From an uncultured Planctomycetota bacterium (GTDB taxonomy: Bacteria; Planctomycetota; Planctomycetia; Isosphaerales; Isosphaeraceae), in the NCBI GenBank assembly GCA_963823665.1, contig CAWGMQ010000005.1, positions 320,001 through 384,000 on the forward strand: 64,000 nucleotides of DNA. Direction: 5' to 3'. Under the pieces are notes generated by a model. It did not search any database. It had not been told where the DNA came from and saw only the letters and a list, made by a program, of their open reading frames with translations. The position numbers were made by a program, and so were the translations under genes. Of the stretch, positions 986-25,061 are shown piece by piece (position 1 is the stretch's first letter; every line of letters starts with the position of its first letter).

Positions 986-1024
986 ACAAATGCCGATTCC
1001 GTCTAGCGAGGGCGAACGCACGCG

Positions 1025-1420: not shown

Positions 1421-1429
1421 CCGATTCCC

Positions 1430-2347
1430 ATGATCCAACATCTCTTGCCCATGCGCGATGGCCGGAAGCTCGAGGTCACCGAGTTCGGAGATCGCGCCGG
1501 ACATCCCGTCTTTTTCTTCCACGGGCTGATCGGATCGCATCATCAGGCAGCCTACATCTCCGACGAAGCGGGACGTGCCGGCCTCCGGATCATCGCGCCG
1601 AACCGGCCCGGTGTGGGCCACTCCGAGTTCGTCGCTCGCAAGACCGCGCTCGAGTGCGTGACCGACGTCGAAGACGTGGCAACGGCCCTGGGTTTCGACG
1701 AGTTCAGCCTGATCGGAATCTCCGGCGGAACACCTTACGCCCTGGCGGCCCTCTCGCGCCTGGCACAACGGGTGAAAACCGTGACGGTGATCAGCGGTAT
1801 GGGGCCGATCCATTTGCGCGGGGCGCTGCGCGGCATGGACCGGCGACGGAGGATCACGCTTGCGATCGGCTCACGATGGCCGAGCGTCGCGCGCCGCGGA
1901 TTCCAGAAAGCCGCCGACCGTTTCCGCGCCAACCCCGAGGGATTGCTTGATCGCCTGATCATGACCTGGTCCCTCGCTGATCAAATTGTGTTCAAACGGA
2001 AAAGCGTCTACGACCTCTTCATGCAGGACTTGCACCACGTCTTCACGCTCGGCGAGGGCCCGATCACGATGGCGCATGAGCTTGCCCTCTACCGCAATTA
2101 CGGCGTCTCGCTCAGCGACCTGCCCAAAGACAAGATGATCACCCTCTGGCACGGCCTCTCCGATAATATCGTTCCGCCGGCGATGGCTTGCGCGATGGCT
2201 TTATCACTGCCCTTGTGCGAGGCGCACCTGGTTCCCGGCGGGCATTTCGTGGCCGTCGATATCGCCGATCGGATCATTGCCCGGCTCAGGCGATCGCTCG
2301 AAGCGCCGAGCGACAGCCCGGCGGCAACACGGAGCCCATCCCGATGA
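1430..2347 (+). CDS. Alpha/beta-fold hydrolase
   Basis: FFFHGLIGS, PNRPGVGHS, nucleophile elbow GISGG, WHGLSDNIVP, GGHF. Confidence 0.88.
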   Translation: MIQHLLPMRDGRKLEVTEFGDRAGHPVFFFHGLIGSHHQAAYISDEAGRAGLRIIAPNRPGVGHSEFVARKTALECVTDVEDVATALGFDEFSLIGISGGTPYALAALSRLAQRVKTVTVISGMGPIHLRGALRGMDRRRRITLAIGSRWPSVARRGFQKAADRFRANPEGLLDRLIMTWSLADQIVFKRKSVYDLFMQDLHHVFTLGEGPITMAHELALYRNYGVSLSDLPKDKMITLWHGLSDNIVPPAMACAMALSLPLCEAHLVPGGHFVAVDIADRIIARLRRSLEAPSDSPAATRSPSR

Positions 2348-3105
2348 GCGAAACAGAGAAGGACCATTTTTCGGGACACGCCGCGTGCTATCAGCAGTTT
2401 CGGCCGAACTATCCTGCGCCGCTTTTTGAATACCTCGCGTCGCTCTGCACTGCGCATGATCTCGCGTGGGACTGTGCAACCGGCAACGGGCAGGCGGCCG
2501 TGCCGCTCGCTCGATACTTCACCAGCATTATCGCGACGGATTTCAGTGCGCAGCAGATTGAGCAGGCAGAGCGCCGGGCGACGGTGCGGTATCTGGTGGC
2601 GCCGGCGGATCAGGTTCCTCTTGCAGACACGTCGGCCGACCTCGTGACGGTCGCGCAGGCGCTGCACTGGTTCGACCTCACGAGCTTTTACCGCGAGGTG
2701 CGCCGGGTTGCCAAGCCGGGCGGGTTCCTGGCGGTCTGGTGTTACGAAATGCACCACATCACCCCGGAGATTGATGGGATAGTGCGCCGACTTTATTCCG
2801 ACATCGTGGGGCCGTACTGGCCGCCGGAGCGCAAGATTGTCGAGGAAGGGTATCGCACGCTGCCGTTCCCATTCGACGAGCTTGCACCACCCCAGTTCGA
2901 GATGGTGCACTCTTGGAATCTCGACCATGTATTGGGCTATTTTGGGTCGTGGTCGTCGACTCAGCGCTATCGCAAGCAAGTGGGTGAGGACCCGCTCGCG
3001 CTGATCGCCGATGAGCTCAAAGCAGTTTGGGGCGATCCCGAACGGGTTCGCGACGTCGTGTGGCCGTTGAATTTGAGGGTCGGGCGAGTCAGTCCAGTGT
3101 CTTGA
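2344..3105 (+). CDS. Class I SAM-dependent methyltransferase
   Basis: Start ATG overlaps upstream TGA (ATGA). KDHFSGHAACYQQFRPNYP, AWDCATGNGQAA, DLVTVAQALHWFD. Confidence 0.9.
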   Translation: MSETEKDHFSGHAACYQQFRPNYPAPLFEYLASLCTAHDLAWDCATGNGQAAVPLARYFTSIIATDFSAQQIEQAERRATVRYLVAPADQVPLADTSADLVTVAQALHWFDLTSFYREVRRVAKPGGFLAVWCYEMHHITPEIDGIVRRLYSDIVGPYWPPERKIVEEGYRTLPFPFDELAPPQFEMVHSWNLDHVLGYFGSWSSTQRYRKQVGEDPLALIADELKAVWGDPERVRDVVWPLNLRVGRVSPVS

Positions 3106-4417
3106 TCGACACATTCCGGAACTCGACCGGGTCGTTGTGGCCGGCGAAGCCGAAGAAGCCGGAAGTCCGGTCTTTGCCGGGATGGGGCGAGTTGGACATG
3201 AATTCCTTGACCTTGCTCAGGTCGGTGTCGAGGATGACGGTACCGTTTAACTCGACCTTGATCGTGGATCCCTTGACGGTGACCTCCTGGAAGTTCCACT
3301 GGCCGATTGGGCGCAGATAGCCGCGGGCGGCAGCGACCATGCCGTAGGCTGAGCCGTGCGCCTGGCGGGCGTCGAGAGATCCTGCGTACTTTGAGTGACC
3401 GTCATCCAGAACTTGCAGCTCGCACATGCCGTGATAGGCGGTGTCACCTTTGCCGGGATAACGGATCGCCAGGCCGTTGTTCCCGCCCGGCGGAAGCTTG
3501 AATTCAACCCGGGCCATGAAATCGGTCAACTCCTTGTTGAGATAAATGGTTCCTCCTTCATTCGGCTTGCAGCGCAGGACGCCGTCTTTGACTTCATAGT
3601 TCTCGATCGGGCCGGCCCAACCCGTCAGGTCCTGGCCGTTCAAGATCGGCTGGAAGCCCGAGCTGCCGTGCTTGGCCAGAATCTGGTTGGCCTCGTCGGG
3701 GGGGATCTCGCGAATTGAGATATTCCGCCACAGGAGCTCATGATCGTGGGTTTGAAGCTGAATCGAGCCTCGGGCCGGGATCGGCACGCTTCGCTTCCAG
3801 TAGTTCTCGAGCAGCGCGTGGTCGACGATGAGCTTGTCATTCAAGTAGATCGTTGTGCGCGCGCCGACCTGGATGATCCGGAATGTGTTCCACTGGCCGA
3901 CGGGGTTGTCGGCGCGGACCAGGGGATCTTTTCCCGGTGCGCCCGGGCTGTTGTTCCAAAGACCGCCAGAGCCCTTGTCGGCGCCCATCGACGCGTAACG
4001 CGGCTCGGTGAAATCCCAGATCTGGACCTGCGGCGTCCCGCGCAGGTACACGCCGCTATCGCCCTGCGGTCCGATCTTCCAATCGACCAGGATCTCGATG
4101 TCGCCGTATTCTTTGTCAGTGGTGAGATAGACACCCTGGCCATCATTGACGATTACGCCGTCTTGAACCTTCCAGTGTTTCGTCATGTCGTCGGCACCCT
4201 CGGCGAGCACCTTGGATTTCTCTTCCGCGGCGAGTGCTTCGAACTGGCGCGGATCCATCGTCTTCAGGCCATGCCAGCCGGTGAAATCGTTGCCGTTGAA
4301 GAGCGTGGTGAAGCCGTCGCGCGAGTTGGCCGGTTGCACGGCGGCTTTGCGATCGTCGCCGAAGGCGGAACCCGTGATGAGTCCGGCGAACAAGACGAGT
4401 GAAATTGGCTGGCGCAT
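3089..4417 (-). CDS. Secreted tandem DUF1080 (3-keto-disaccharide hydrolase family) protein
   Basis: Signal peptide and two repeats of LFNG.D.TGW ... DSG/NNG ... GQWN ... G.I.LQ.H / FAGHNDPVEFRNV. Confidence 0.88.
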   Translation of the reverse strand: MRQPISLVLFAGLITGSAFGDDRKAAVQPANSRDGFTTLFNGNDFTGWHGLKTMDPRQFEALAAEEKSKVLAEGADDMTKHWKVQDGVIVNDGQGVYLTTDKEYGDIEILVDWKIGPQGDSGVYLRGTPQVQIWDFTEPRYASMGADKGSGGLWNNSPGAPGKDPLVRADNPVGQWNTFRIIQVGARTTIYLNDKLIVDHALLENYWKRSVPIPARGSIQLQTHDHELLWRNISIREIPPDEANQILAKHGSSGFQPILNGQDLTGWAGPIENYEVKDGVLRCKPNEGGTIYLNKELTDFMARVEFKLPPGGNNGLAIRYPGKGDTAYHGMCELQVLDDGHSKYAGSLDARQAHGSAYGMVAAARGYLRPIGQWNFQEVTVKGSTIKVELNGTVILDTDLSKVKEFMSNSPHPGKDRTSGFFGFAGHNDPVEFRNVSIKTLD

Positions 4418-4525
4418 GATGTCGTTCTCTCAGAGCTCGATGGTTTGAAAAAAGGGGAGGCTGGAATATGGGTGGGAACGCACGGATGGTTTGCACCATC
4501 ATCGGCGGAGTTTGCACGCGGATCA

Positions 4526-4547
4526 AGTGTAGTGCCAAGGGCTGAAG
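4526..4547 (+). repeat. Direct-repeat motif copy 1 (AGTGTAGTGCCAAGGGCTGAAG), candidate att-like site
   Basis: Identical 22-mer at 9856-9877; related copies at 12832 and 13628. Confidence 0.85.
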
Positions 4548-4578
4548 CCCGTGAACTCCGTTCAGGAGTTTGATAACG

Positions 4579-7500
4579 CTATTCGGGGCTTACCGCGACC
4601 GAGGAATCTTCGCGGGATTCTTCGCCATTCCTCAAACCCAGGGCAAGGGCCGCACCCGATGCACCGAGGGATTCCACCAGCTCGTGCGCCGCGGCGCGGA
4701 CTCGCAGAGCAGGGTCTTCCAGGGCTTCTCGAAGGACGGCGGCCGCGCTCGGGTCGCTCGATTCCGCGGAGAGAAGCGATCTCGCGGCAATCAAACGCAC
4801 ACGCGAGTTCGGATCCGCGACAAGGCGCTGCATTACCTCCGACACCGTGCCGGTAGGAGCCAGAGATAGCGCCATCGCAGCGTTCATTCGCAGGCCATCG
4901 TCGGCATCAAACGTGCACTCGACGAGTGAGGGGATGGCCGCCGCTGGAATGGCGTCGAGCCGGGCCAAGGCGTGGGCGCAGTTCGCGCGTACCCGAACCT
5001 CCGGGTCGCCCAAGGCTTCGACGAGCGCGGAGATGGCTTGTTCCTCTATGGCCGTCGCGTTCATCCAGCCTGCCGAGGCCAACATCCGCACGTTGCCGCA
5101 GGCATCCTTCAGGCCGGCGGCAAGCGCCTCCGGCGTCTCGGGTGGTTGAATCTTTGCGATCGCTCGCATGGCCTGTTGGCGAACACTTTCGACCCCGTTC
5201 TGAACGGCGTGGAGCAGAGGCCCTCCGGCGGCGCCGGCGGCCCCACCAAGCTGGCCAAGGGCCAGGGCAGAGTAGACCTGAACCCAGTCGCTGTCATCTT
5301 CCAGCAGCCGGCGGCACAAGCCTTCGATGACTGCCGGCCTTGCACCCGCAAGCTTCGGCAACACCTTGGTTACCTCAACTTTGACCTGATCATTCGCGTC
5401 GTCGAGGAGGCAAATCAGGCCTTCCAGGTCTGCTTCGCTCGGCTCGCCCCACTGGCCCAAGGACTGGACCGCGGCGGCTCGAACCAGAGGGTCGGGATCC
5501 CGGAACGCCGCCACGACCATCGGTGTCAATCGCCGAGTCGGCATGCCCAGCGCACCCAAGGCACGAATGGCCTCGCTACGGACGCCACCGTCCTCGTCGT
5601 GAATTATTCTCTCGAGTGCGGGCCGCGCGGCGGCCGCTGTACCCCCCATTCTGCCGAGCGCCTCGGCCGCGTTTCGGCGCACAACTGCATTCACGTGGCT
5701 CAGGGAATCGACCAGGGCAGGAATTGCCCCGTCGGCGGATTCTCCCATCTCGCCCAGGGCTTCCGCCGCCAGGGCACTCACCACGTTGTCTTGGTCTCGT
5801 AGGGCTCGCATCAGACCGGGAACAGCAACAAGAGCCGCGCATTCGCCGATCTTGCCGAGCGCCTCTACGGCCATGGCTCGCACCCGGTCGTTGTCGTCGG
5901 CCATCGCGTGGACCAGAGCAGGGGCAGCGTCATCGGCCGCGGCGCCAATGGTCCCGAGAGCCTCGGCCGTCTGAGCGCGCACAACATTGTCCGGGCTGTT
6001 CAGACCTAGAACCAACGCGTCCGTGGCTGCGTGATCCAGCGGCCCGACGTGCGCGATGGCTTCGGCAGCGGCCGTGCGTACCGACTCGTCGCTATCCTGC
6101 AAAAGCGGCACAAGCGCCGGGACCGCCGGAGCCGCGTCCTTCCCCATCACTCCCAGGGCCCGCGTCGCCGAGATCTTGACGGGCGCACTCGAGTCCTTCA
6201 GCATCTGGACGAGTGCGGCGGTGGTAGCCTGCGGGGACCCGCGGACCTCGCCAAGTGCCGTGGCCGCGTGGCAGCGAATCGTTTCGTCCGACTCGTTCAA
6301 CAATGCGATCAGTAGCGGCCCCGCCGCCGCCGCTGCCGGCCCGATCCGACCCAGCGCCGTGACGGCCTGGATCCGCACCGCCGTCGAGTCGTCGGCCAGG
6401 GCCGCCTGAAGCGTCGCCACGGCGAACTCGACGGGGTCGTGCTTTGGTGATTGCGCGAATTGGTTCCGTTTCTGAAAGAACAGCCAGATCCTTCCCACTC
6501 TCGCGACTCGGACCCGACGACGGGCGCGCATGGAGTGCGCCGATACGGCCCGCAGGCTGCCGAGGACCCCGAGCGCTTCGATCACGCTTTGCCGCACCAT
6601 CTCGCTGGGGTCTCGAATGAGTGCGGCCAGTACTGGCAACGCTTTCACGGCGTGGAGCCGGCCCAGCGCAGCAGCGACGATTGCACGGACGTGCGCGTGC
6701 CGGTCGCGCAAGTCACGGACCAGGGCGGGGATTATGGAGGGACCAATCGTTTCCAGGATGAGCGGCAGCCGGTCCCGCTGCTCCTTCGTCAGCGTCGGCA
6801 CCAGGCGCAGCGACCCCAGCAGTGGGCCGATCGCCAGTGCACCGTAACTCGGTAACGCATTCCGAGCCCGGTCGTGGATCGGCTCGTGCGGACTCCAGAA
6901 ATCGGTGATCGTTTCGGCTAGCAGTTTTCCCTGTCGCAGGGATGCGAAGATCTGATGGAGCAAGACCATCGTGAAGAACAGTTTGAACCCGGCGAGCAGC
7001 GCTTGTGCCGGCCAGGTGGCCACGCGAACGGATGCGGCCCCCAAGATATGGTGTGACTTGAACAGGTCAAGCACGTCCACGATGCCCAGGGTTTGCGCGA
7101 GAGCGTAAGCCACGAAGTCGACATATGCCGGCACCCTCAGTACGTTGGCAACCTGATACCAGTCTCGCCCGATCGATTCATAGAGGCCTTGGTTCAGCAG
7201 GGCGAACCCGCCGATCAAAGCAACGGTCGCGCATCCCAATAAAGGCAGACGGAGATGCCTGCCGTATAGTTCGAGGTTCAGTGCCAGCCCCTGGCCCTTG
7301 AGCGGGTTATGGACCGCCTTGTAACCCCGCTCGACCTCGTTCCGTTCCAGGTCGATGAACATGTAAGCCAGGCAAGCGGTGATCCCCATGAACATTGGGG
7401 GCAGGCCGAACAGGACCCTCAAACCGGGCCACAGGCTCCCGGCCAGCCCGCCCGCAACGAGAAAAACGACGACGATCCCCAAGAACACCGGCCACGAAGC

Positions 7501-7740
7501 CCACCCTAGCAGACGCTCCCAGAGCAGAAAGCCCCCCTGGATGGCTCCTTTCACAACAAGGCCGACGCCGCGCAAGACCGCGGCAATCAGCCCGATCCGG
7601 TGCAAGATGCCCGCCAGCACGCTTGTTCCAGCGAGCACCAGAAGCAGCAGATACGATGGATCTGCCTGTTCCAGCTTGTCAAGCCAGAGCGCGGCATTCA
7701 TGAACACCGCCTCGGGCCACAAGTACACTGGAATGAACAT
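4579..7740 (-). CDS. Membrane-anchored HEAT/PBS-lyase repeat protein
   Basis: About 270-aa hydrophobic N-terminus with several TM segments, then many D....VR..AAEALG repeats. Confidence 0.85.
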   Translation of the reverse strand: MFIPVYLWPEAVFMNAALWLDKLEQADPSYLLLLVLAGTSVLAGILHRIGLIAAVLRGVGLVVKGAIQGGFLLWERLLGWASWPVFLGIVVVFLVAGGLAGSLWPGLRVLFGLPPMFMGITACLAYMFIDLERNEVERGYKAVHNPLKGQGLALNLELYGRHLRLPLLGCATVALIGGFALLNQGLYESIGRDWYQVANVLRVPAYVDFVAYALAQTLGIVDVLDLFKSHHILGAASVRVATWPAQALLAGFKLFFTMVLLHQIFASLRQGKLLAETITDFWSPHEPIHDRARNALPSYGALAIGPLLGSLRLVPTLTKEQRDRLPLILETIGPSIIPALVRDLRDRHAHVRAIVAAALGRLHAVKALPVLAALIRDPSEMVRQSVIEALGVLGSLRAVSAHSMRARRRVRVARVGRIWLFFQKRNQFAQSPKHDPVEFAVATLQAALADDSTAVRIQAVTALGRIGPAAAAAGPLLIALLNESDETIRCHAATALGEVRGSPQATTAALVQMLKDSSAPVKISATRALGVMGKDAAPAVPALVPLLQDSDESVRTAAAEAIAHVGPLDHAATDALVLGLNSPDNVVRAQTAEALGTIGAAADDAAPALVHAMADDNDRVRAMAVEALGKIGECAALVAVPGLMRALRDQDNVVSALAAEALGEMGESADGAIPALVDSLSHVNAVVRRNAAEALGRMGGTAAAARPALERIIHDEDGGVRSEAIRALGALGMPTRRLTPMVVAAFRDPDPLVRAAAVQSLGQWGEPSEADLEGLICLLDDANDQVKVEVTKVLPKLAGARPAVIEGLCRRLLEDDSDWVQVYSALALGQLGGAAGAAGGPLLHAVQNGVESVRQQAMRAIAKIQPPETPEALAAGLKDACGNVRMLASAGWMNATAIEEQAISALVEALGDPEVRVRANCAHALARLDAIPAAAIPSLVECTFDADDGLRMNAAMALSLAPTGTVSEVMQRLVADPNSRVRLIAARSLLSAESSDPSAAAVLREALEDPALRVRAAAHELVESLGASGAALALGLRNGEESREDSSVAVSPE

Positions 7741-7746
7741 GTCTCA

Positions 7747-8187
7747 CTATTTCTTGCTCACGTTGACCTTGAACTCGCTCTTGGCGTCGGCGCCCGTTGT
7801 CGGGTGACCTATGACCTTGATCGTGAATTCACCCAATGAGGCGTCGGCCGCGGCTTTGAGCGTGACCTTCGCTTCGGAGTCCCCGTGCTTGATAATCGGG
7901 CTGGCGGAAGCGAGAGTTACTCCTTTCGGGCCCTCGGCAAAAGTGAGCTCGACGTCTCCGTCGAAATTCTTGCCGCGAGCGATACCGATCGCGGCTTCTT
8001 TCGTCTCTCCCTGATGAAGGGGCGTCGACATATGCGGCACGCTGAGACTGAACGTGTTGTCAGTCTCTCCGTACACGGGCTGCTTGTGTGGCGGGTTGGT
8101 TACTCCCGGTCCGCCCGGCGTGCTCTGAGTGCAGCCGGCGAGGGCGAACCCCAGCAGAACCAGTGAGCCAGCGACTGAAGCCTTCAT
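7747..8187 (-). CDS. Putative lipoprotein with Ig-like beta domain
   Basis: Lipobox FALAGC; beta-rich body; stop 6 nt before the HEAT gene start (operon). Confidence 0.8.
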   Translation of the reverse strand: MKASVAGSLVLLGFALAGCTQSTPGGPGVTNPPHKQPVYGETDNTFSLSVPHMSTPLHQGETKEAAIGIARGKNFDGDVELTFAEGPKGVTLASASPIIKHGDSEAKVTLKAAADASLGEFTIKVIGHPTTGADAKSEFKVNVSKK

Positions 8188-8394
8188 GGAAGATCACCTT
8201 TCTCAGTAACCACGGGGAATGTAACCTACGACCACCAATGGAAGCTGGGAGAAACTCTCTGATCCAGCGGGGGAACACACGCCGGTGGCCCGATGATGGT
8301 GGGCCGCACGGCCCACCGCCAGTTCCGACGTGCCTATTTACCCGTGAGATGCAAATGTCGGGCCCTCCGACCATCTATGCTGGATCGAATCCGC

Positions 8395-8510
8395 AAAAAA
8401 AAACCGGCGTGGTCGAACACCCTCAGGCATTCGACCACGCCGGCTTACTCGTCAACGAGCCCCCCGGCGCGGCCGGGTTGCCCTCAGTCTAGTCGTCCGA
8501 CGACATCTAA
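8395..8510 (-). ncRNA. Candidate structured ncRNA or 5' leader ending in an intrinsic terminator
   Basis: Minus strand: hairpins GTCGT-CGG-ACGAC, CCGG-CCGCG-CCGG, CTCGT-TG-ACGAG, then a perfect 14-bp stem CCGGCGTGGTCGAA/TTCGACCACGCCGG followed by T9. Confidence 0.6.
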
Positions 8511-8657
8511 TCAGGTTTTTATCGGAGCCGACAGCCAGTTGACATGGGCTCGTGTTTCACTTTTATTTTGACAAGCTGAGCGCAAATAGCAAGTGAATTC
8601 TTTTACGTTCTTTTGTATAAAAAGGTTGAGACTTCCCAAAGACAGAGGACCACGACG

Positions 8658-9575
8658 ATGCCGCTCCAGGATGCTCGTCCCACGCTCGACGACTCGACCG
8701 ATGAGCATCCGGCTACCCCCGAGCCCGATCCGCCTCGGGTACGGATCAGGTTCGGCGCCCTGACCGACACGGGCAAAGTCCGCGTCACCAACGAGGATCA
8801 TTTCCTGGTCGCCGGGCTCTCCAAGTCAATGCAGGTATACAAGACCAGCCTGCAAGGACGGGACAGGTCGTTGTTCTCCGACGAAGAGGGATTCCTGATC
8901 GTGGTCGCTGACGGCGTGGGGGGCGCCGCGGGCGGTGAACGTGCCAGCGCCCTGGCGGTTGAGAACATGGAATCGTTCGTGCTGAACACGCTCAAATGGT
9001 TCCTCCACTTCAGCGGCCACGACGAGCACTCCCTTCTTGCCGAGCTTCGCCAAAGCCTCGAACGCGCTGATCGGACCGTGATCGAGCGCGCCCGGACCAA
9101 CCCCGTCCTCCAGGGCATGGCGACTACCCTGACGATGGCCTATAGCGTCGCCAACGACCTGTACATCGTCCACGCGGGGGACTCACGCGCGTACCTGTTC
9201 CGCGAGGGTGTACTCGAGCAGTTGACCAGCGACCACACGCTCGTCCAACGCTTGATCGACGGCGGCGCGATTTCGACGGAGGATGCCAAGCGGCACAAGT
9301 GGCGCAACGTCGTGACCAACGTCATCGGCGGTGACCGCGAGGGTGTCTTTGCCGAGGTCCACAAGCTCGCGGTGCTCGACGGCGACACGCTGCTGTTCTG
9401 CACCGACGGCCTGACCGAGCCCGTTAGCGACGACGCAATCGCCGAGGCCCTCCGGCATCACCCCGATCCCGAAGACGCCTGCGCGCACCTCGTGGACCTG
9501 GCCCTCCGCGGAGGCGGGTCCGACAATGTGACCGCGGTCGTCGCACGGTATCAGGTTGATCAGAATCCATTGTGA
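8658..9575 (+). CDS. PP2C-family Ser/Thr protein phosphatase
   Basis: TDTGKVRVTNED, VADGVGG, GMATTLT, HAGDSRAY, LTSDHT, CTDGL, GGSDNVT; GAGGA RBS. Confidence 0.92.
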   Translation: MPLQDARPTLDDSTDEHPATPEPDPPRVRIRFGALTDTGKVRVTNEDHFLVAGLSKSMQVYKTSLQGRDRSLFSDEEGFLIVVADGVGGAAGGERASALAVENMESFVLNTLKWFLHFSGHDEHSLLAELRQSLERADRTVIERARTNPVLQGMATTLTMAYSVANDLYIVHAGDSRAYLFREGVLEQLTSDHTLVQRLIDGGAISTEDAKRHKWRNVVTNVIGGDREGVFAEVHKLAVLDGDTLLFCTDGLTEPVSDDAIAEALRHHPDPEDACAHLVDLALRGGGSDNVTAVVARYQVDQNPL

Positions 9576-9586
9576 GGAGAACGGAG

Positions 9587-9856
9587 ATGCATCACTTCCG
9601 AGGAAAGCTCTTCCAGGGGGAGAAGGTCTGTCTCGATCCCGCAAACGTCTACATCGACTACCAATCGGAGGTTGATGTAACCTCGAACTGGTCTGGCTAC
9701 CTCCTGGTCAAATCAGAGAAGGACGTGGCGGCTGGAGGCATCTACACGCTGAAGTTGGAGGACGGGCGGGCTGGACAGCTACGGATCGACACTCTCGCTC
9801 CAGACGACTCGGATAAGGTTCGAGCGATGTTCGTGGGCGAGGGGTTGCTGGGGTGA
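9587..9856 (+). CDS. Small hypothetical beta-rich protein
   Basis: 89-aa ORF with GGAG RBS just after PP2C; its TGA runs into repeat copy 2. Confidence 0.7.
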   Translation: MHHFRGKLFQGEKVCLDPANVYIDYQSEVDVTSNWSGYLLVKSEKDVAAGGIYTLKLEDGRAGQLRIDTLAPDDSDKVRAMFVGEGLLG

Positions 9857-9877
9857 GTGTAGTGCCAAGGGCTGAAG
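9856..9877 (+). repeat. Direct-repeat motif copy 2 (AGTGTAGTGCCAAGGGCTGAAG)
   Basis: Identical to 4526-4547. Confidence 0.85.
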
Positions 9878-10094
9878 TACTGCCAACTTGGCTGACCCCG
9901 TGGACAAGCCTGGGATTGGCAGGGCAATTGCAAGCACGTTTGATACCCAGGCGGAGAATTCGGTATTGAAAAGGCGTGGGATAGGCTCCATCGGGCTGCG
10001 CCTCGAATCCGGCCCGGGGACTCTCGAGAGGATCGTCCGCGCGGACGGCCTCGTGAGGGCAAAGACCTTGAAGTGACCGAAGGAAGGCACCCCC

Positions 10095-10546
10095 ATGCGG
10101 AATCACGTTCACAGGACATCGGCCAACGGCTCGGACACAGCTCGTGGCGCTGGGCGTAAGGCTCGGAACGCATTGCTGGCGGTCAGAACGGAGACTTCCG
10201 ACATGATCCCCGCTGCTGGGAGCTTTCTCAGCCGGGCGATGTACACGACTTCGTATGGCGTGTCGTATGGAATGATCTTCCCCGTGTTGCTGATAGGCGC
10301 GCGGTGCCGAGGGAGAACGCACTCGTGCACGGCATTGCCGACGGTGCGAACGCGGCGCGGGACCAGGTCACGTCGTGGCTGGGGTCGAGAGATGGGGTTG
10401 AGGGCGACCAGGAGGAAGAGGGCGAAGAGAGTGATGAGGACGGGGAATCAAGTTCCGACCAGAACGGAGCGACGCTTCCAAAACGGCAGCGACGGCAAGG
10501 CGCCCGGGCACGCAGCGGTCGCCAGGGGTCGCGTTCCGCGCGCTGA
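10095..10546 (+). pseudogene. Hypothetical protein split by a frameshift near 10297
   Basis: Frame 10095 (SRAMYTTSYGVSYGMIFPVLLI) appears to continue in frame 10304 (PRENALVHGIADGANAARD) with an acidic/basic tail. Confidence 0.5.
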
Positions 10547-10598
10547 AAGTGACCCTGGGTGTGTGATGAGCGCTGCGTGGGTTGCCGGGAATCGTTGT

Positions 10599-11098
10599 TT
10601 ATCGGGCCGGGCAGCCGGCGAGGTTGGCCGGGTGGTGGACGCCTAACCGAGTTGCGACTTCGCGCAGGCGCGCGGCTGGCGGCGAAGTATCGGCCAAGGA
10701 GCCGGCCTTTGGTGAGCTTCTCGAGCCGGGCCCACCAGCGCTCGGCGCTGGAGCCGAGTCGTTCGAGGATTCCCGCGAGCTCGGCGGAGATTGCATTTGG
10801 GGTGGCGAGTGGCGGGTGATGGGTGGCGGGTGGTCTCAGGACTGTGAGCGGCTCGGTGGATTTGCCGTCGCGGAACAACCTTCCGGTGTATTCGACCAGG
10901 AGCAGGTCAATCTTTGGCCAGGTCGGGGTCGAGGCGTACCAGTACATGCAGATGGTTGTCCATGACCGAGAACCCGGCGGCAGAGAGCGAGAAAATATCC
11001 GCAAGTTCTTGGAGGCGTTGTTCGATCCATTCTCTGCGGTTGATCGGGCCTTCACTCAGCAAGAACGCGCGACGCACACAGCGCGTGACGCACGTGTA
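10599..11098 (-). pseudogene. REP-associated tyrosine transposase (RAYT/HUH Y1) remnant with central deletion
   Basis: Minus-strand translation YTCVTRCVRRAFLL...EWIEQRLQELADIF...FSVMDNHLHVLVRLDPD (HUH motif) is joined directly to the C-terminal LLLVEYTGRLFRDGK...ISAELAGILERLG...GRLLGRYFAAS / RLREVATRLGVHH. A CCACC-rich repeat is inserted near 10800-10860. Confidence 0.8.
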
Positions 11099-11152
11099 CG
11101 CCCCCGCCGCGGACGCCGAGGCGGCCGCGACGCTGCGCCATCGCCGTTCCGG

Positions 11153-11792
11153 TCAAGCCAAGAACATCTCGATCTGTCGAAGCGCCTCCAGGCTCGTCGG
11201 CTCCCGGAGCAGCTCGGTGGCCAGACGGTGAACGGCCCTGGCCAGTTGGAAGGTCGCAGGCTCGTGGTCCTGCCAACTTTCCGTGGCCCCCATCCGGTTG
11301 CCCCATCGGAACCAGCAGCGGACGGTCATCCCGTCGCAGCCGGGACCCGCCGAGTTCTCCGGCCGCAGGGGGATGCTCGCCGGGATGCGCTCGTGGAACC
11401 GGACGATTTGTTGTCGATCCGCCCGCCCGGTCTCCTCCCATCGCTCAAGGTCAGACGGGGGAGGGCCCTGCTGAGGCCATCCCTCCTTCAGGAGCTGGTT
11501 CTCGGCCCCGAGCCGTCAATTCCCCGACGAACTTTACGAGGCAAACCTCGGCCGCTTCCGGCCACTCGACGACGATGATGCCGCAGGGCCGATAGAACGA
11601 GGGGGAGTACGAGACAAGGTAGAACGGCAATGTGTCAGACCTGACCACCTTCGAGAGCCACCGAGGCTCGAACCAGTGCCCCAGATCGGACCACGGGTCG
11701 CAGCCAGGTGGCTCTCCACCTGCGATGAGCGAGGCGCCGTCCTCCGCGCCGGGGTGCCTCGGGCCTGGGGGCTGTGGTTCGGGAGAGGACAT
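11153..11792 (-). pseudogene. Frameshifted hypothetical protein
   Basis: Protein-like segments in successive frames (WFEPRWLSKV...SYSPSF; IVRFHERIP...GCDGMTVRC; SWQDHEPATFQLARAVHRLATELL...FLA*). Confidence 0.35.
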
Positions 11793-12038
11793 GTGGGTCC
11801 TCCGGGCAGGAGCTCGTCGGACAGTAAGATGTCGGATGGGGCTCAGGTTAGCGGATCTGACCCTGCGTCGCCAGATCCCGGCGCCTCCCATGAGCGAACC
11901 CCATGAGGGAGGGAAATGGCCGTCGTCACCCCGAATCAGCCCCGTGACTTCGACAGGGCGGCTGCGACCTGAACTCATGGCCGCGGGTATTCGGCCTCGC
12001 CTCTGGGGGGGTGTTGAATTCGGCAGTCGCAATCGGAG

Positions 12039-12464
12039 TCAGGCTTCGGGGCCCCGAGCAAGCAGGGCGAGGAGTTCGGCTGGAGTCAGGACCGGTGCTG
12101 GGGAACCGGCGAAATCCTTGCGGTTGCGCGTGACGATGGCGTCGAGGCTGGCTTGCACGGCGCAGGCGATGTGCAGATTGTCCTCGAAGTCGGAACCGTT
12201 CAACGTGGCGGCCATTTCCAGTGTCGTCCGATCGACGGATACGATTCCCAGCGATCGGAGGCAATTCGTCACCGCGATGTGCGCGCGTCCCAAGTCGGCC
12301 TGCTTGCGAATGACATAAAAGAGGGTTGGTAGCGCGGCGGCAGAAATTCGGGCGTCGACCCGCCCGACCTGGTTCGCGTCCCAGATCGCATCGGCTTCGG
12401 CCCTCCAGGGTTCTCGTGCAAGGAGGGCATCCAGTACGACGTTCAGATCGAGCAAAACAGTCAC
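12039..12464 (-). CDS. PIN-domain (VapC-like) toxin
   Basis: VLLDLNVVLD, DFEDNLHIACA, IVTRNRKDF; start overlaps the stop of the upstream small gene. Confidence 0.9.
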   Translation of the reverse strand: MTVLLDLNVVLDALLAREPWRAEADAIWDANQVGRVDARISAAALPTLFYVIRKQADLGRAHIAVTNCLRSLGIVSVDRTTLEMAATLNGSDFEDNLHIACAVQASLDAIVTRNRKDFAGSPAPVLTPAELLALLARGPEA

Positions 12465-12724
12465 CGGCCGTATTTCTCTATCCGATGCTCGTCGATCCAG
12501 CGTTCGACCGTTTCGTCATCGGGAGGGGGCCGGTCGGTCTTGAGCAGGCCCTGGATTTCCGCCGCTGTTAACCCGCGCTCCTTCGCGGGGGCGGCTGCCG
12601 GTGGCGCGTCCGCATTATCCAGAGACTCAAGGATCTTGTGCGCCAGCGTGATCTGCAATGTCGTCGGCCAAGCCTTGACTCGTTTCAGCACGTCCTTCAG
12701 TTCCGTCGCTTCGGCAGTGCTCAT
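12461..12724 (-). CDS. Putative antitoxin paired with the PIN toxin
   Basis: 87 aa, directly upstream and overlapping; ends PPDDETVERWIDEHRIEKYG. Confidence 0.75.
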   Translation of the reverse strand: MSTAEATELKDVLKRVKAWPTTLQITLAHKILESLDNADAPPAAAPAKERGLTAAEIQGLLKTDRPPPDDETVERWIDEHRIEKYGR

Positions 12725-12831
12725 GGGTTAGGCCTCTCCGGCAAGTCGAAAACAGCCGTTTCGTCGACCTGGCACCCCCGCCCGGCTTTCATGATCAGTT
12801 TACCAAAACGACTGTAAACCCGCAGTACACA

Positions 12832-12846
12832 GTAGTGCCAAGGGCT
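12832..12846 (+). repeat. Direct-repeat motif copy 3 (GTAGTGCCAAGGGCT)
   Basis: 15/15 identical to the core of copies 1 and 2. Confidence 0.8.
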
Positions 12847-12907
12847 AGAATTGCTTCCACGTTTCTTGAGCGATCATGAGTAGCGCCTCGATACCGCTAC
12901 GCCATCT

Positions 12908-13061
12908 TGGATCGTGAGCTTGTACGAGGCGGAGGACAACGCCGTCGTCACCGGGCACCTGGGGCTTCACCGGTTCGATCGACGAGCTTTCGATCTACGT
13001 CCGCGCGCTGAGCGATAGAGAGATTCAAACGATCTATAGCGCGCGAAGCGCCGGTAAGTCG
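12908..13061 (+). pseudogene. LamG-like domain remnant (N- and C-terminal pieces fused)
   Basis: IVSLYEAEDNA followed, in another frame, by WGFTGSIDELSIYVRALSDREIQTIYSARSAGK. 12951-13061 matches 14251-14361 at 97/111 nt. Confidence 0.65.
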
Positions 13062-13179
13062 GGCGGGTCGGCACCAGCGACGACGGGGGTCGTGGTCGAC
13101 CTTTAGACGGGTGTGGCCGGCCACCGGACTTGCTAGCTGCCGGCGCTCGCATTTGGGACGTGGTCGGCAGCGGTGGAAA

Positions 13180-13330
13180 CGAGATTCTGGTGGGATCGAG
13201 CTCCGACAGGGCGTTGCCGCGGTTGTTGACGGAACGGGCGACGCTTTCACGGAGATCGGGGGTGTTCAGGCTGCGCGGCGGCCAATCGTTTGAAGATCGA
13301 CGGCCTCGTCGTTGGAGCAGCGCAGCGTCA
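13180..13330 (-). pseudogene. TPR-repeat fragment
   Basis: IFKRLAA..P..PDLRESVARSVNNRGNALSEL; similar at DNA level to 15720-15800 (GGCCAATCGTTTGAAGATCG shared). Confidence 0.5.
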
Positions 13331-13627
13331 GGGCGAAGAGATGACCATTGTGGCCCATTCGTGGCCATCTTCGGATGGGTTCACTTCCCACGTGATCCAT
13401 CCAATCATGTTCATGCGATGCCATTCTGTGGATTTATACACGACAAAGCATCTCACAGTAAAAGAACTCCACGGGGTGTTGTTTGCACTTCGATCGATGG
13501 TGTCGGCGAGAACCAAATGCAGCCATGGATGGTACGCTGATCGCAAAAGGTTGTGACCGGGGTCATCGGGTTTCCCGCTCACCGTCTGCGGAAGCATGTG
13601 GGAACGGAAAGGTGCCTTCGGTTGACA

Positions 13628-13645
13628 GTAGTGCTGAGGGCTGAA
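13628..13645 (+). repeat. Direct-repeat motif copy 4 (GTAGTGCTGAGGGCTGAA)
   Basis: 16/18 match to the core; shares the ACA left flank with copy 3. Confidence 0.65.
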
Positions 13646-13932
13646 AGTCCGTGGCTATTGACCGAGGCCCTGGCGGGGCCATGGACGATGCCGTCGATAT
13701 TCGCGTCGGCATGATGCTTTGATGCAGCATTGCATTTTTCGGCCTTGCGTCAGCCCGAAAACGTGGCGAGGATTTACCTTGATCGGTCAATCGAGCCGCG
13801 GAACGGACAGTGCTCAACCGGTCAGGCAACGATGGCGTTACGTCGAATCCGAGCCGGTGCCGCGTGTGCCCCGCGCACCAAACGCATCGCACCGCACTCG
13901 GCTTGCGTTCAATCTGAGCAAGCAAGGTCAGC

Positions 13933-14189: not shown

Positions 14190-14361
14190 TGACCGGCGAA
14201 GCGACAACCTGCCGGGAGGCAACGACCCCGCTATCGAAGCCTACCTCTTGCCGGGGACCTGGGGCTTCACCGGTTCGATTGACGAGCTCTCGATCTACAA
14301 CCACGCTTTGCGCGATTCAGAGATCCGAACGATCTATAGCGCGGGAAGCGCCGGTAAGTCG
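14190..14361 (+). pseudogene. Second LamG-like C-terminal remnant
   Basis: LPGGND....YLLPGTWGFTGSIDELSIYNHALRDSEIRTIYSAGSAGK. Confidence 0.65.
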
Positions 14362-14375
14362 AATGGGTACCGCCA

Positions 14376-15492
14376 TCACTCTGGAGTCTCCGATTCAGAT
14401 GATAGCCTGCGCGCTAGCTCGATCTCATGGCGCTCGCGTTGAAGCTCGGCGGCCAATTCCTCCTCGCTCGGGAGGTGCAGTTTATAGCGCGACGCAAAAA
14501 TCTGTTTGTTGCCTTCCGGTAGCGTGTATCGGACTACGGCTTCGCTCTTGTCGGTGCAAAGCACGATTCCGATCGGCGGGTTTTCATCCGGGGCTGTCAG
14601 CTCGCGCTGGTAGTAATTGACATACATCTGCATTTGCCCGAGGTCTTGATGCGTGAGCGATCCTACTTTGAGATCCAGGAGGACAAACGAGCGAGTAATC
14701 CGGTTGTAGAACACCAAGTCGATGAAGAAATGCCGGCCATCAAGCGTGATCCGCTGCTGCCTTCCCATGAATGCGAAGCCCTTTCCCAGCTCAAGCAGGA
14801 ATTGCTGCAACTTCGCGAGCAAAGCTTGCTCCAGGTCGGACTCTTGCAACCGCTCGTCTTGGCGGAGCCCCGTGAATTCGAGCACGAATGGGTCTTTGAT
14901 AAGGTCGGCTGGCTGTGTAATTTCATGCCCTTTCTGAGCCAGTGACAAGACGCCGGCCTTGTCACGGCTCAAGGCGAGGCGATCGAACAGAAGTGAGTCG
15001 ATCTGTCGTTCGAGTTCTCGGGTGGACCAGCGGGCATTGACAGCCTCGGCCTCATAAAACGCTCGCGCGTTCGGATTGTCGACGCGAAGCAGGAGCCGGT
15101 AATGCGTCCAGGATAATTGTCGACGCAGTGCGTCGACTTTTGGGTAGGCCAGAAAAAAAGCTCGCATATGGAAGAGGTTCGAGCGGTCATAGCCTCTGGC
15201 GAATTCTTGCCGCAGCCGCTGGGAAAGCCCGTCGATGACGCGTTTGCCGTAGTCTGCTCTTTCCCGGCCGGCTTGTTCCTCTTCGACGATTGCGCGGCCG
15301 ACATCCCAGTAGGCTTCAACCATGGTCGTGTTGACAGCCTGCCACGCGCGGTTGCGGGCAGCGGCCAAGATGTCGCGGACATGATGATACAGATTGTCCA
15401 GACGCTGCGCGGGTGCCGCGCTGACCGGCAGCAAGGCGGCGCGCGGATAACTTACCTGATAGCTTCTTGGGTCGATTGAATCTCTTTGCCAT
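14376..15492 (-). CDS. YhcG/DUF1016 PD-(D/E)XK nuclease-domain protein (possible frameshift near the N-terminus)
   Basis: AVNTTMVEAYWDVG, RADYGK, LSWTHYRLLL, WSTRELERQI, IKDPFVLEF, FLLELGKGFAF, IDLVFYNR, DLGQMQMYVNYY, ENPPIGIVLC. Likely ATG at 15492 is out of frame. Confidence 0.9.
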
Positions 15493-15590
15493 GCTGACGG
15501 TAAAGCACGGCATGGCTTCGGAGGCGAGCCGTTTTGCAGATGAAATGACTGAATTGCAATGCAGCGAAAATCAGACAGCAGGGAATAGGT

Positions 15591-15830
15591 ATGGTGCCAG
15601 AAATGCCACGAGCGAATAGGTCGGGTGTGGAAATCTGGGACGGGAAGTGGCACCACGTCGCCGGCACTTTTGACGGCATGACGGTCCGTATCTATGCTGA
15701 CGGCAGGCAGGTGGGATTTCGACGGAGATCGAGGTCTTCGGGTTGCTGGGCGGCCAATCGTTTGAAGATCGCGACGGCCTTGTCGTGGGACTCGAGCGCT
15801 TGCTCTTGGCCAACGCGATCTCGTCGATGA
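15591..15830. pseudogene. Head-on junction of a LamG middle fragment (+) and a TPR fragment (-)
   Basis: + strand IWDGKWHHVAGTFDGMTVRIYADGRQVG; - strand QALESHDKAVAIFKRLAAQQPEDLDLRR. Confidence 0.6.
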
Positions 15831-16186: not shown

Positions 16187-16208
16187 AAACAAATCCGTCG
16201 CAAAATAA

Positions 16209-19604: not shown

Positions 19605-19655
19605 TCCTCGGGCTCGCGCCTCTCCTGGGGCTCGCGCCTCTCCTGGGGCTCGCGC
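19605..19655 (+). repeat. 18-bp tandem repeat x3 (TCCTGGGGCTCGCGCCTC)
   Basis: Copies at 19605, 19623 and 19641; the third is interrupted by the IS4. Confidence 0.8.
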
Positions 19656-21220
19656 CTTTGTCCTTACCATCATCTTCATCATACCGATGAAGATACGTCG
19701 ATGATAGCCTCGGCGCCCCGGATCATGATCTGCAGCTTGTCCCAACCCCGCCAGATCGTCATCCAACCTGGCTCCCCATCGTGGCGGCGGCCCAGGAACC
19801 CTCCCAGCTTGGCCAACTCCCGAAAAAATCCTCCCGCAGTTAATATTGTCGTGGGCGCCAATCTGCGCACCACCTTCAGCATCATCACGTATTTGGGCGG
19901 TACCACCTCGGTCGCAGGCTGCTCGGGAGCTGTCCGCGCCATTCCCTTCAACTGGAACAACCGCAGTGCTTCCACAGACATCAATCCCATCATGGCTTCG
20001 AGACGATCGCACGTCTTGAGCTGGCGACGTTCTACCTGAAAGCCTGTTTTCAGGACCTTGTGCCACTCCTCGATTAGCCACCTCTTCCCGTAGTACCCCA
20101 CGATCGCCATAGCATCTTCAAAATCCTCCACCAGCAAAGAAGTGTAAAGCACCCACTCGATCGCCTCCACTCCGTCGGGAGCATCTACCTCGCGCACCCA
20201 GACGACCCACATGGGGATCGCCGCGGGCTTGACCTGCTTCAGAAATGGGCTTTTGAGTTTCGGCGTCGGCATCCGTAAGGCCCCGATGGCGACCACCAGC
20301 TTGGCCGTCCGAGCCGGTGCTTTGGGGCGAGCCCGCAGATTGAGCGTGTAACATCCAGCCCGCGGCAGGGTCCCTAAGTAGGCTTTCAGCGGCGTTTCCC
20401 CGCTCTCCGGCGTGATAATGATCCGGATCAGGCTCTTGGCTCGCGCCACCCATTCGGTTTCTGTCTGCTGGCAGTGATAGAAAAACTCAAAGTCGTCGGC
20501 GCCACGATCAACTACGTGAATCCAGGAGGTTCCCGACGGCGGGGATCCCATTTGGATGACAAGATCACCCCAGATCTGTGATTCGCGATCGTCACGCTGC
20601 AACCGTTCGGTCCGCGTCTCCCCCTTACGAACGCGCTGACGATGATAGATCAGTTGTCCGGCCAAGCCGTGAACCCGGTCGTCTTCGGGGGAAACCATCA
20701 AACCCGAGTGAAGGTGAAAGCCTTGTCCGATACCCGAACCAACCGGCGAAAGACCTGTGACCTGTCGGCACGGCCCGTAATCGATTTCGGTCGTGTCTGC
20801 GATGATCAATTGACGCTCACCTGCTGTCTTCTTGGTAAGCTCCCAATGGTGACTGGCGATCGCTTGAAAGGTGACGTCCTCACAATCGAAGAAAATGTAT
20901 GCGGCCCTCAGATCATTCCAGGATTCGGTTTGCTGAGGAAAACTCCCGGACGGATCTGCGGCGATCTGCGTTGCCAACAGAACGAGTCGTTTGGTACGGC
21001 GTTCGTCATGAAGATCAGTGGTGGCGAATTGGGTCATGGCCCAAGTCTGCGCATCTGAAAGAAAGGTGTCCATCCGAGGCTCCGGCGGTTGAAACGCGAT
21101 CCCTCCCCCCCACCTCAGCGTGTGGCTTGGCTTGATATTACCAGGTGCGAAGCGAGAAAAGCCGGGAAAAGGCCGGGGAAGCGCACCTATGACCACCAGA
21201 AAATGATGGTAAGGACAAAG
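19656..21220 (-). mobile_element. IS4-family (IS50/Tn5-like) insertion sequence, apparently intact
   Basis: Perfect 18-bp IRs CTTTGTCCTTACCATCAT / ATGATGGTAAGGACAAAG; 8-bp direct repeat GCTCGCGC at 19648-19655 and 21221-21228. Confidence 0.92.
19679..21073 (-). CDS. IS4-family (Tn5-like) transposase
   Basis: WAMTQF...LHDERRTKRL, IADTTEID, VVDRGADDFE, YGKRWLIEEWHKVLKTG (YREK), LAKLGGFLGRRHDGEPGWMTIWRGW. Confidence 0.93.
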   Translation of the reverse strand: MDTFLSDAQTWAMTQFATTDLHDERRTKRLVLLATQIAADPSGSFPQQTESWNDLRAAYIFFDCEDVTFQAIASHHWELTKKTAGERQLIIADTTEIDYGPCRQVTGLSPVGSGIGQGFHLHSGLMVSPEDDRVHGLAGQLIYHRQRVRKGETRTERLQRDDRESQIWGDLVIQMGSPPSGTSWIHVVDRGADDFEFFYHCQQTETEWVARAKSLIRIIITPESGETPLKAYLGTLPRAGCYTLNLRARPKAPARTAKLVVAIGALRMPTPKLKSPFLKQVKPAAIPMWVVWVREVDAPDGVEAIEWVLYTSLLVEDFEDAMAIVGYYGKRWLIEEWHKVLKTGFQVERRQLKTCDRLEAMMGLMSVEALRLFQLKGMARTAPEQPATEVVPPKYVMMLKVVRRLAPTTILTAGGFFRELAKLGGFLGRRHDGEPGWMTIWRGWDKLQIMIRGAEAIIDVSSSV

Positions 21221-22414
21221 GCTCGCGCCCCAGGCTTTATGATTTCGCCCCGTTCGGGGCTGTGGGAGGGAACACCGCGGGATCATGCATCGGTTTACCA
21301 TGTCAGGCTATTGCATCGAAGGATCGATTAGTCGGTTGCGTTCCGGTCTTCCGGACGAAACATGTACTATTCAATACTAATTGGGTGTTTTCTGATCTTT
21401 GATTGATTCTGGGACGATCGACCGGTGCGAGTAGCACATTTTTATGCGTCACACGTATCGAGAATGATGGCATCGAGTTGGGTTCGATTGGTGCCGCACC
21501 TGAATTTGGCTGCGTCACACGTAAGTCCAATTGCTGCAAGGCTGTGTCGCACGTGACGCAGAAAATGGGGGGCCGAAAAGGTTTTTTAAACGCCCGCTGC
21601 CGCGGGCGAGCGCGTGTGAGGCGAATGCTCGAAACGATTCGCGGGAGGTTCGTCGAGTGGGAACGGGGACGCGCTTTCGCTGAGCGAAAGGCGAATATGG
21701 GGTGGGGGCTGCCGAGACGTTTCCAACGAACGGCAGTGGCGGGGTTCGTTCCCTTAATCCTTGCAGGGAAAGGATGCGCGTCGAATATACAAAACGAACT
21801 GGCTTGGCAGTTGGCGGTTGGCAGTTGGAAGGAGGGAGACCCGCGCCGAATGAGAGGCTGCACGTCCCCCGCCGCCTGCGGCGGCAGGTCGTCTACGCGG
21901 GGGGGGGGGAAGGATGCCGACACTAATCATTTGACCGCGTGTTCACAATGAACAAAGAAATCGCGCAAAGCCGCGGGGGCGATCATTTTGCTCCAGGGGC
22001 CGAGGAAGCCCTTGATGCAACGAAATTCGCAGCCCTATTTGCACTTGCGCGGGGCGAATGGAGCCGATTAGGGGCGCGGAGCGCACCGTAGCGATTTTGG
22101 AGCTGAGAGAGACACTCGACGGTGTGGTGCGGCATGAGGCGCGGGATGATGGCTGCTGCTGGGTTCTCGGGGTCGGAACGAGATTGGGATTAAGATTAGG
22201 ATTAAGATTAGGATACGTTTTGGACCTTTTTTCATTTCACTCGAACCGAGATCTGCGGCGCCTGGGGTGCGCGGTCTTTCCTGCGCCAAAGCCCCACGTC
22301 CGCCGCCTGCGGCGGCACCTCCCCCGCGCTCGGCGGAGCAAAGCCTGAGGTCCCTTCGCGGAGAGGCTGTCATCTTTTGGCCGCGTTGCGGTAACTCGGC
22401 CGTTGGGCCTAGTC

Positions 22415-24422: not shown

Positions 24423-25061
24423 TTGAGGATCGTCTGGATACTCGTCGCGGTAATCGCCATTTTACTAGCGCTCAGTCTGGCCTGGCGGTGGGCCAGTCGA
24501 AGACGGTCGCTCCCTTGCCCGGCGCTTCTGGCATGGACCCTCGAGAACCCAATCCTCCAGCGGTTCAACGGCACAAGGCTCGTCCTGGATCGGTTGGGGC
24601 TACGGCCCGGACAGCACGTCTTGGAGATTGGGCCGGGGCCGGGACGGCTGCTCATACCGGCCGCGAACCACGTGCTTCCCGACGGTGAAGCCGTCGGGAT
24701 CGATATCCAACCGGCGATGATCACACGGCTCGAGCGCCGCGCCGATCAGGCAGGAATCACCAACTTGAAGGCCATTCTCGGTGATGCAGCCCAACCCCAC
24801 GTGCCTGAAGTGAGCTTCGACGTCGTCTTCCTGTGTGCGGCACTCGGTGAGATCCCGGATCGCGCTGCCGCTCTGGCGCAGGCTTATCGCGCGCTCAAGC
24901 CGGGAGGGGTCCTGTCGATCACGGAGATGTTCGGCGATCCTCATTACCAGACTCGATCGGTCGTCGAGCGGCTTGGTCTGGAAGCGGGATTTCGCCTGCA
25001 ATCTCTCCGCGGCGGCTGGTGGCTCTTCACGGCTGATTTCATCAAACCCGTTGCCGCGTGA
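24423..25061 (+). CDS. Class I SAM-dependent methyltransferase with N-terminal TM helix
   Basis: VLEIGPGPG, GIDIQ, FDVVFL..ALGEIPD...AL....RALKPGG. Confidence 0.88.
   Translation: MRIVWILVAVIAILLALSLAWRWASRRRSLPCPALLAWTLENPILQRFNGTRLVLDRLGLRPGQHVLEIGPGPGRLLIPAANHVLPDGEAVGIDIQPAMITRLERRADQAGITNLKAILGDAAQPHVPEVSFDVVFLCAALGEIPDRAAALAQAYRALKPGGVLSITEMFGDPHYQTRSVVERLGLEAGFRLQSLRGGWWLFTADFIKPVAA

Follow-up and report, generated by a model that had tools for sequence, protein, structure and literature searches.

The sequence analyzed here, referred to as the window, is a 64-kb stretch (positions 320001 to 384000 of contig C5) of the 16.46-Mb, 92% complete genome G000, from an uncultured planctomycete of the family Isosphaeraceae; its genes, DUF1559 among them, likewise point to a planctomycete. 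Near its left end, core genes give way to an accessory region, in which a short motif occurs four times, always on the plus strand. A sequence-only reading proposed these sites to be integration points of cassettes, as in integron arrays, and alternatively linked them to the HUH chemistry of repetitive extragenic palindromic (REP) elements and REP-associated tyrosine transposases (RAYTs). Comparison within the genome and with its relatives identified one of the four sites as a full copy of a dispersed double-hairpin repeat and the other three as truncated starts of it.

Genes and motif sites at the core-accessory boundary

The last core gene at the left encodes a 3-keto-disaccharide hydrolase of the DUF1080 type (3089..4417, minus strand). 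Between motif copies 1 and 2 lie a HEAT-repeat gene (4579-7740), a lipoprotein-like open reading frame (ORF; 7747-8187), and a multicopy hairpin (8392-8530), all within a HEAT-to-PP2C segment (4555..9568) that is 90 to 92% identical to a motif-free segment elsewhere in the related genome G029. A PP2C gene (8613-9575) starts inside this segment and is followed by a small ORF of 94 aa (9572..9856, plus strand), whose G029 homologue is on another contig. Copies 2 and 3 enclose a remnant of a long Y1 transposase-like gene (10571..11098, minus strand; the ~340-aa gene type, subclass 2.3, with an internal deletion) and a PIN toxin gene with its likely antitoxin (12039..12724, minus strand). A LamG gene fragment (12895..13104, plus strand) follows copy 3, and a methyltransferase gene (24423..25061, plus strand) marks the right edge of the accessory region; its last 84 nt are kept in G029. 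Pfam confirmed the HEAT, PP2C, PIN, and LamG identifications. LamG debris is not confined to the interval between copies 3 and 4, as had been described: the fragment is repeated at 14251-14368, beyond copy 4, and further pieces lie at 15591-15830.

The exact 15-mer at the heart of the motif is found at 4529, 9859, and 12832, with a 2-mismatch version at 13628; a search allowing up to 3 mismatches gave no other copy in the window, the same four plus-strand positions that had been noted by eye. The 22-mer at 4526 is identical to that at 9856, where chance would give about 0.0004 such pairs in 64 kb. Each site consists of 3 to 6 local bases followed by the start of the double-hairpin repeat, and 16 of the 22 nt are dispersed repeat. 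Copy 1 (4526..4554) contains the local flank and the first hairpin less one base (hairpin part, 4532-4553), and it is the entire filler joining core DNA to the HEAT module; its bases 4533-4553 are identical to one G029 member of the repeat family. Copy 2 (9856..9877) is a stub of arm and loop with the same 22 nt as copy 1, directly followed on the same strand by a second, degenerate repeat unit (9877..9903), a stutter that has a counterpart at locus L073; the next homology block starts at 9911. Copy 3 (12829..12846), the shortest stub, is the first arm alone. It separates the toxin-antitoxin (TA) module, for which homology in one soil contig reaches 12812, from the LamG fragment, where homology starts at 12895. 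Copy 4 (13625..13696) is somewhat decayed but full, having the two hairpins as well as the tail that family members share (complete repeat, 13631-13696). Similarity between sites therefore does not end abruptly on both sides, as first described, because rightward it runs through the hairpin in copy 1, into a degenerate second unit after copy 2, and over a complete repeat in copy 4. The close packing of genes around the sites was described correctly: copy 2 overlaps the stop codon of the small ORF (9854-9856), and 31 nt separate copy 1 from that of the HEAT gene.

A dispersed double-hairpin repeat

In G000 the exact 15-mer occurs at this locus only, and it is absent from 120 other genomes of the family. 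A locus-specific att core was rejected from the flanks of the genomic matches with 1 or 2 mismatches: near-matches lying outside the window number 23, and 11 of them extend into one longer sequence. Its 24-nt core has 21 near-exact copies in G000 (13 forward and 8 reverse; reversed control, 0), spread over both strands of six contigs, and further copies exist. The aligned unit of ~55 to 70 nt (about 55 nt plus a decaying tail) begins at GTGCCAAGG and folds into two hairpins (z = −4.2 for the L059 copy), the first stem having one mismatch. Arm 15-mer copies number 25 in G000: the hairpin follows in 20 of them, and the remaining 5 are stubs.

A plus-strand GTAG lead-in is present in 2 of these 25 copies, both of them in the window and 6 nt from the core stem. 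Because the arm and hairpin are shared with the dispersed copies while GTAG, within this set, is confined to the window, the four sites represent a local sub-lineage of the repeat. Instead of a GT[AG]G tetranucleotide at the stem foot, the hairpin carries an ATAG-type tag on the minus strand. The suggested connection to REP/RAYT chemistry thus holds for the class of repeat, while the plus-strand GTAG offered in its support is not the tag.

Thirteen of 121 family genomes contain variants of the repeat, G044 and G062 having 43 copies apiece. In relatives these variants sometimes form inverted pairs ~157 nt apart, and at L122 a family member lies in frame within a gene. In wider collections, the 29-nt core was found at 2 loci among genome contigs; a metagenome-contig collection gave 0 matches for a 19-mer and for a 23-mer, and a viral-contig collection gave 0 matches for the 23-mer.

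Comparison with the same locus in a relative

G029 belongs to the same genus as G000 and to another species; its core DNA is ~85% identical, and its assembly is 84% complete. Synteny with the window stops exactly at 4526 and homology to the HEAT module starts at 4555, which places copy 1 at the core-accessory boundary to the base, as had been proposed. At the orthologous site G029 has a ~70-nt filler with two tandem stubs, followed by the last 84 nt of the methyltransferase gene (24978-25061) and sugar-transport genes. Upstream of the DUF1080 gene there is thus no empty site with a single motif copy, which cassette integration had led one to expect; the G029 site is a deletion product, with most of a gene gone. 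Since two tandem stubs occupy this orthologous site, the motif was probably already present in the ancestor of G000 and G029.

The material to the right of copy 1 is scattered in G029. Positions 4555-9568 match G029 contig C6 (90 to 92%), 9574-9857 match C9 (88%), with small-ORF homology stopping at 9857, and 9911-10565 match C18 (89%). No motif is present at the ends of any of these G029 segments, and the internal join at 9568/9574 carries none. Given three separate contigs and motif-free ends, copies 1 and 2 are best described as fillers between blocks, and they do lie within a few bases of module boundaries, in line with the earlier proposal. The interval between them is composite, because the homologue of the 94-aa ORF is on a different contig, and the view of a self-contained 5.3-kb unit does not survive the comparison. 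A target-site duplication by single insertion was also considered and fits poorly, because the left copy, not the right, continues into the hairpin. In public reads, 6 runs contained small shares (0.06 to 0.12), and 4 were assembled, into short contigs only; among the contigs listed from these shallow reads, none bridges or skips between copies.

Integron cassettes, pdif modules, and tandem islands all place same-orientation sites between accessory genes, including TA pairs. If a recombinase of the tyrosine or serine type had inserted tandem islands or cassettes at an att core of 22 bp, this would account for a perfect 22-nt direct repeat bracketing 5.3 kb at the core boundary, for the TA pair in one interval, and for an exact 15-mer found at no other locus of the genome and in none of the 120 family genomes. 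The motif, however, forms one end of a repeat that is dispersed in random orientation and supplies 16 of its 22 nt, the cargo is composite, and G029 has two stubs and a deletion in place of one precise empty core. G029 also carries the modules separately and without the flanking motif, an outcome named in advance as refuting for this reading. No integrase or recombinase was found among 23 + 54 = 77 ORF translations scanned (part of the ORFs of the window), no attC or dif structure was found, and the 64-kb window yielded no tRNA gene and no Rfam family at gathering score. The combination of an IntI-type integrase and attC that identifies an integron was likewise not found with these 77 translations, the rest of the genome not having been searched for an integrase. 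Repeated site-specific integration is very improbable.

Operator or terminator sites of co-regulated genes would also be intergenic, as all four sites are, and a hairpin does follow the small-ORF stop. The sites keep no consistent position, being located after stops, upstream of the TA pair, and inside gene debris; orthologous G029 modules lack the motif, and the L122 member is in frame inside a gene. A regulatory role as the explanation of the pattern is extremely improbable.

Repeat copies at synteny breaks elsewhere

Repeat copies outside the window were compared at four loci picked for stubs or pairs (L192, L184, L193, and L189) and at ten further loci taken regardless of stubs. The module at L192 spans 6.2 kb and is 93% identical to a segment of G029 that lacks the motif; to its left lies a 100-nt filler made of degenerate stubs, and to its right are stubs and a full repeat. 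Three more same-strand repeat pairs ~6 kb apart were found; in the one at L184, both members are at block ends. At L193, 110 nt replace 46 nt. Among the ten further loci, five have a noncollinear block end 20 to 77 nt away, on the arm side, and two show small replacements (139 for 33 nt and 572 for 34 nt). Measured against noncoding bases, 9.8% of which are within 100 nt of a break, 5 of the 9 copies with data are a significant excess (P = 0.0008, with a crude gene caller and only the blocks listed by the searches), which is not the case when intergenic gaps are the reference (see below).

The same kind of filler accompanies loss of sequence. In G029, one isolated stub forms a 43-nt filler in place of 267 nt that include a likely start codon, and a paralogous copy at L194 shows that the repeat joined at a chromosomal sequence resembling the repeat's own end. 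A clean insertion with target duplication was found at none of the compared sites; what was replaced was 33 to 46 nt, 267 nt, or many kilobases. That such repeats are hot spots of junction formation is already known, REP clusters being described as rearrangement hot spots in PMC11708052.

One repeat copy, at L197 (G000:C6), adjoins a ~750-nt sequence (10327-11076) with >20 copies in G000 and one listed match in G029.

Association with short IS200-like transposases

Fifty Y1-transposase loci were compared in seven genomes, five of which were picked for carrying the repeat. Each of the 10 short TnpA genes (146 to 152 aa) in these seven genomes has flanking double-hairpin repeats of the same build. 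A descriptor recognized 6 of the cases, and 4 were recognized by eye; among the remaining 40 Y1 loci, the same descriptor matched 3. The short proteins have the HuH motif, and 9 of 10 have an exact Y---Q--HH, given as the signature of TnpA-Y1 subclass 1.2 by Quentin et al. (2018; PMC6006769). They agree with that subclass as presented there in length (~150 aa), in both motifs, and in low copy number, and differ in that 10 of 10 are flanked by double-hairpin arrays. Because all 10 short TnpA genes are so flanked, the repeat is assigned at the class level to REP/RAYT-type DNA, and the four window sites are very likely REP-type remnants.

The short TnpA of G000 at L101 passes the IS200 model NF033573 (73.7 bits; cutoff, 55) and fails the REP-associated model NF047646 (32.8 bits; cutoff, 80). 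G000 and G029 have 11 Y1 loci each, none flanked by the exact window variant. At L187 (G000:C5, 7170-9476), an intact gene for a 150-aa subclass 1.2 TnpA follows ~24 double-hairpin units with a 75-nt period.

The transposase-like remnant between copies 2 and 3 (10571..11098) was rejected as the cognate enzyme, being of the long subclass 2.3 type. The earlier link of the sites to RAYTs is therefore borne out by the short Y1 genes, while the supposed RAYT remnant itself belongs to the long type, outside the flanked class. Long-type Y1 genes are described as having no REP-like flanks in the pertinent text of Quentin et al. (PMC6006769). Window-type repeats occur in or beside fragments of such genes at three loci (L185, L191, and L202). 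The long Y1 transposase-like gene at L185 (G000:C10; 5856-7024) carries an in-frame insertion of the window repeat and abuts a partial repeat that ends a CRISPR array with 80 or more repeats (1-5850). None of its 79 spacers has a full-length match to the window or to the other extracted loci.

As presented in PMC3333891, PMC3116915, and PMC3733652, REP sequences and their composite forms (bacterial interspersed mosaic elements [BIMEs] and REPINs) share with this family short, dispersed, imperfect intergenic hairpins with a foot tetranucleotide, arrays beside an HUH-Y1 gene, inverted pairs (here in relatives), and occasional in-frame insertion. The family differs in having two hairpins per unit and an ATAG-type tag, in its ~25 copies, nearly all singlets and far fewer than in classic REP families, in a linked enzyme that scores as IS200-type, and in arm stubs used as junction fillers. 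REP singlets have been described as remnants of doublets (PMC3116915), and REP dissemination has been called poorly understood (PMC8266576). The "TIRtrons" of Di Nocera et al. have a different motif in the main text of PMC3733652, the supplements of which may include the present repeats, and a preprint on lanthipeptides and TnpAREP (10.1101/2020.03.09.984088) concerns subclass 2.1, its causal claim having been withdrawn. In the open literature, no account was found of fillers made of arm stubs, nor of repeats next to subclass 1.2 enzymes.

Tandem stubs and an insertion sequence in the hairpin loop

Truncated units also occur in tandem. Beside a G029 transposase at L102, a full repeat comes after approximately ten units of 22 nt, each made up of flank, arm, and loop, and stub arrays ending in a full unit are also present at L103, L257, and L263. 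Upstream of the 21 near-exact G000 copies, arm-like 8-mers are in excess (13, versus 3.4 ± 1.8 expected; 0 of 500 draws as high). The window has the same order as the arrays beside transposases, three stubs and then a full unit, but with kilobases between units.

An IS4-family insertion sequence (IS) in the accessory region (19656-21220, within 19606..21258) lies in the loop of another variant of the repeat, with an 8-bp target duplication, and this variant has two 18-nt stubs in front of it. A second copy of the element, identical at 1559 of 1565 nt, is found at L186 (G000:C7, 5898-7462), also in a hairpin loop and with an 8-bp duplication. This IS4/Tn5-type element is likely REP-targeting. 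Like the REP-targeting insertion sequences treated in PMC1525189, it sits at a fixed hairpin point, in 2 of 2 copies here; unlike them, it is of the IS4/Tn5 type with an 8-bp duplication, and it is a passenger that abuts none of the four sites. Insertion of this element was rejected as the source of the stubs: it interrupts the same loop, yet no IS end abuts copies 1 to 4. Directly to the left of the element, a 93-nt tandem duplication of a short repeat (19415-19602) recurs at several G029 loci.

In a passive history, slippage would have produced the stub array first, and unrelated IS-driven or illegitimate insertions would later have split it, in intergenic DNA that tolerated them. Cargo-free tandem stub arrays do exist, IS1634, IS4, and IS1182 elements are present in the region, IS4 targets these very hairpins, and about a third of the ordinary intergenic gaps in such regions contain a break. 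This history requires three insertions in an array of <100 nt, and no IS end is found at any of the four sites; copies 1 and 2, moreover, abut block ends within a few bases. Passive splitting is quite improbable.

Origin of the stub pattern

On balance, the pattern probably originated by nicking and patching at an old repeat, and not by the docking of cassettes. The starting point would be an ancestor of G000 and G029 with a repeat upstream of the DUF1080 gene. A free DNA end on the arm side may then have been produced, either by a short HUH transposase that acted in trans or by a fork stalling at the hairpin. Extension of this end would copy the first arm, and slippage at the loop or close to it, in some cases repeated, would leave stubs of 15 to 28 nt with a common local flank; synthesis would then be joined to whatever DNA was available. 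In G029 the outcome would be a deletion, and in G000 the arrival or duplication of accessory DNA. Cargo of this origin would lack fixed ends, and its excision as a unit would not be expected.

Related activities are reported for the Escherichia coli enzyme TnpAREP, which cleaves, recombines, and assembles tandem single-stranded REP units in vitro (PMC3333891); its authors suggest that the nick serves for priming, that units are amplified in tandem, and that flanking genes can become sequestered.

Several observations weigh against this origin. Under a stricter null, with the same gene caller and blocks, the excess at junctions is not significant: 13 of 41 other intergenic gaps contain a break, compared to 5 of the 9 repeat copies (P = 0.12). 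No matching block end was found near copy 4. A test for exact duplications was weak (4 of 21 upstream and 0 of 21 downstream, against a random mean of 1.0 and a maximum of 5). No short TnpA gene flanked by the exact window variant was found in G000 (92% complete) or G029 (84%), and the short TnpA gene of G000 at L101 carries a different hairpin sequence; because this cognate gene was not found, the nicking enzyme is itself inferred. Cleavage and synthesis are inferred steps, not observed ones. Finally, the comparison draws on the single close relative available.

A more directed process would have the short HUH enzyme join multikilobase single-stranded cargo to the end of the repeat and rewrite the arm each time, so that the locus would grow as [stub-cargo]n-[full repeat]. 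The window has that order, which is the order of the arrays on the RAYT side, with kilobase spacers in the window; the 6.2-kb module at L192 is bracketed in the same way, and three more same-strand pairs are ~6 kb apart, the one at L184 having both members at block ends. Between genomes, the larger blocks of cargo agree more closely (90 to 93%) than core DNA does (85%), and the sequestering of genes by REP units has been proposed (Ton-Hoang 2012; PMC3333891). Against directed capture, the fillers are variable and degenerate and also occur at deletions that destroyed genes, the cargo is composite without conserved ends, and no cognate enzyme was found; L192 and L184 had, in addition, been selected for stubs or pairs. 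We consider directed capture unlikely, and it is likewise doubtful that subclass 1.2 enzymes and double-hairpin repeats make up an unrecognized gene-capture system in which cargo accretes between stubs. If they did, gene accretion would have a route that needs no integrase.

Nicking and patching, the most likely reading, removes a false cassette system from this locus. It draws attention to subclass 1.2, for which no REP family is named in the relevant sections of PMC6006769 and whose members here are consistently flanked by double-hairpin arrays. Truncated repeat arms at junctions of deletion and acquisition would then be the sequence scar by which the spread of REP-type DNA, and the remodeling of very large genomes, could be recognized.

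Other elements of the accessory region and window

The hairpin at 8392-8530 follows an A-run (z = −4.7 as DNA) and has no Rfam match. G000 and G029 contain it many times, with a cluster at G000:C10:2.42-2.49 Mb, and it might represent either a leader RNA or some other mobile repeat. Amid scrambled LamG/TPR gene fragments lies a YhcG/DUF1016 nuclease gene (14376-15845). The inverted ends of the IS1634-family element (within 16204-18855) are 46 nt long, and its transposase is divided between two ORFs; the IS1182-family transposase is encoded at 22534-23955. At 43419-45292, the window contains two adjacent nucleotidyltransferase genes of the RlaP family.

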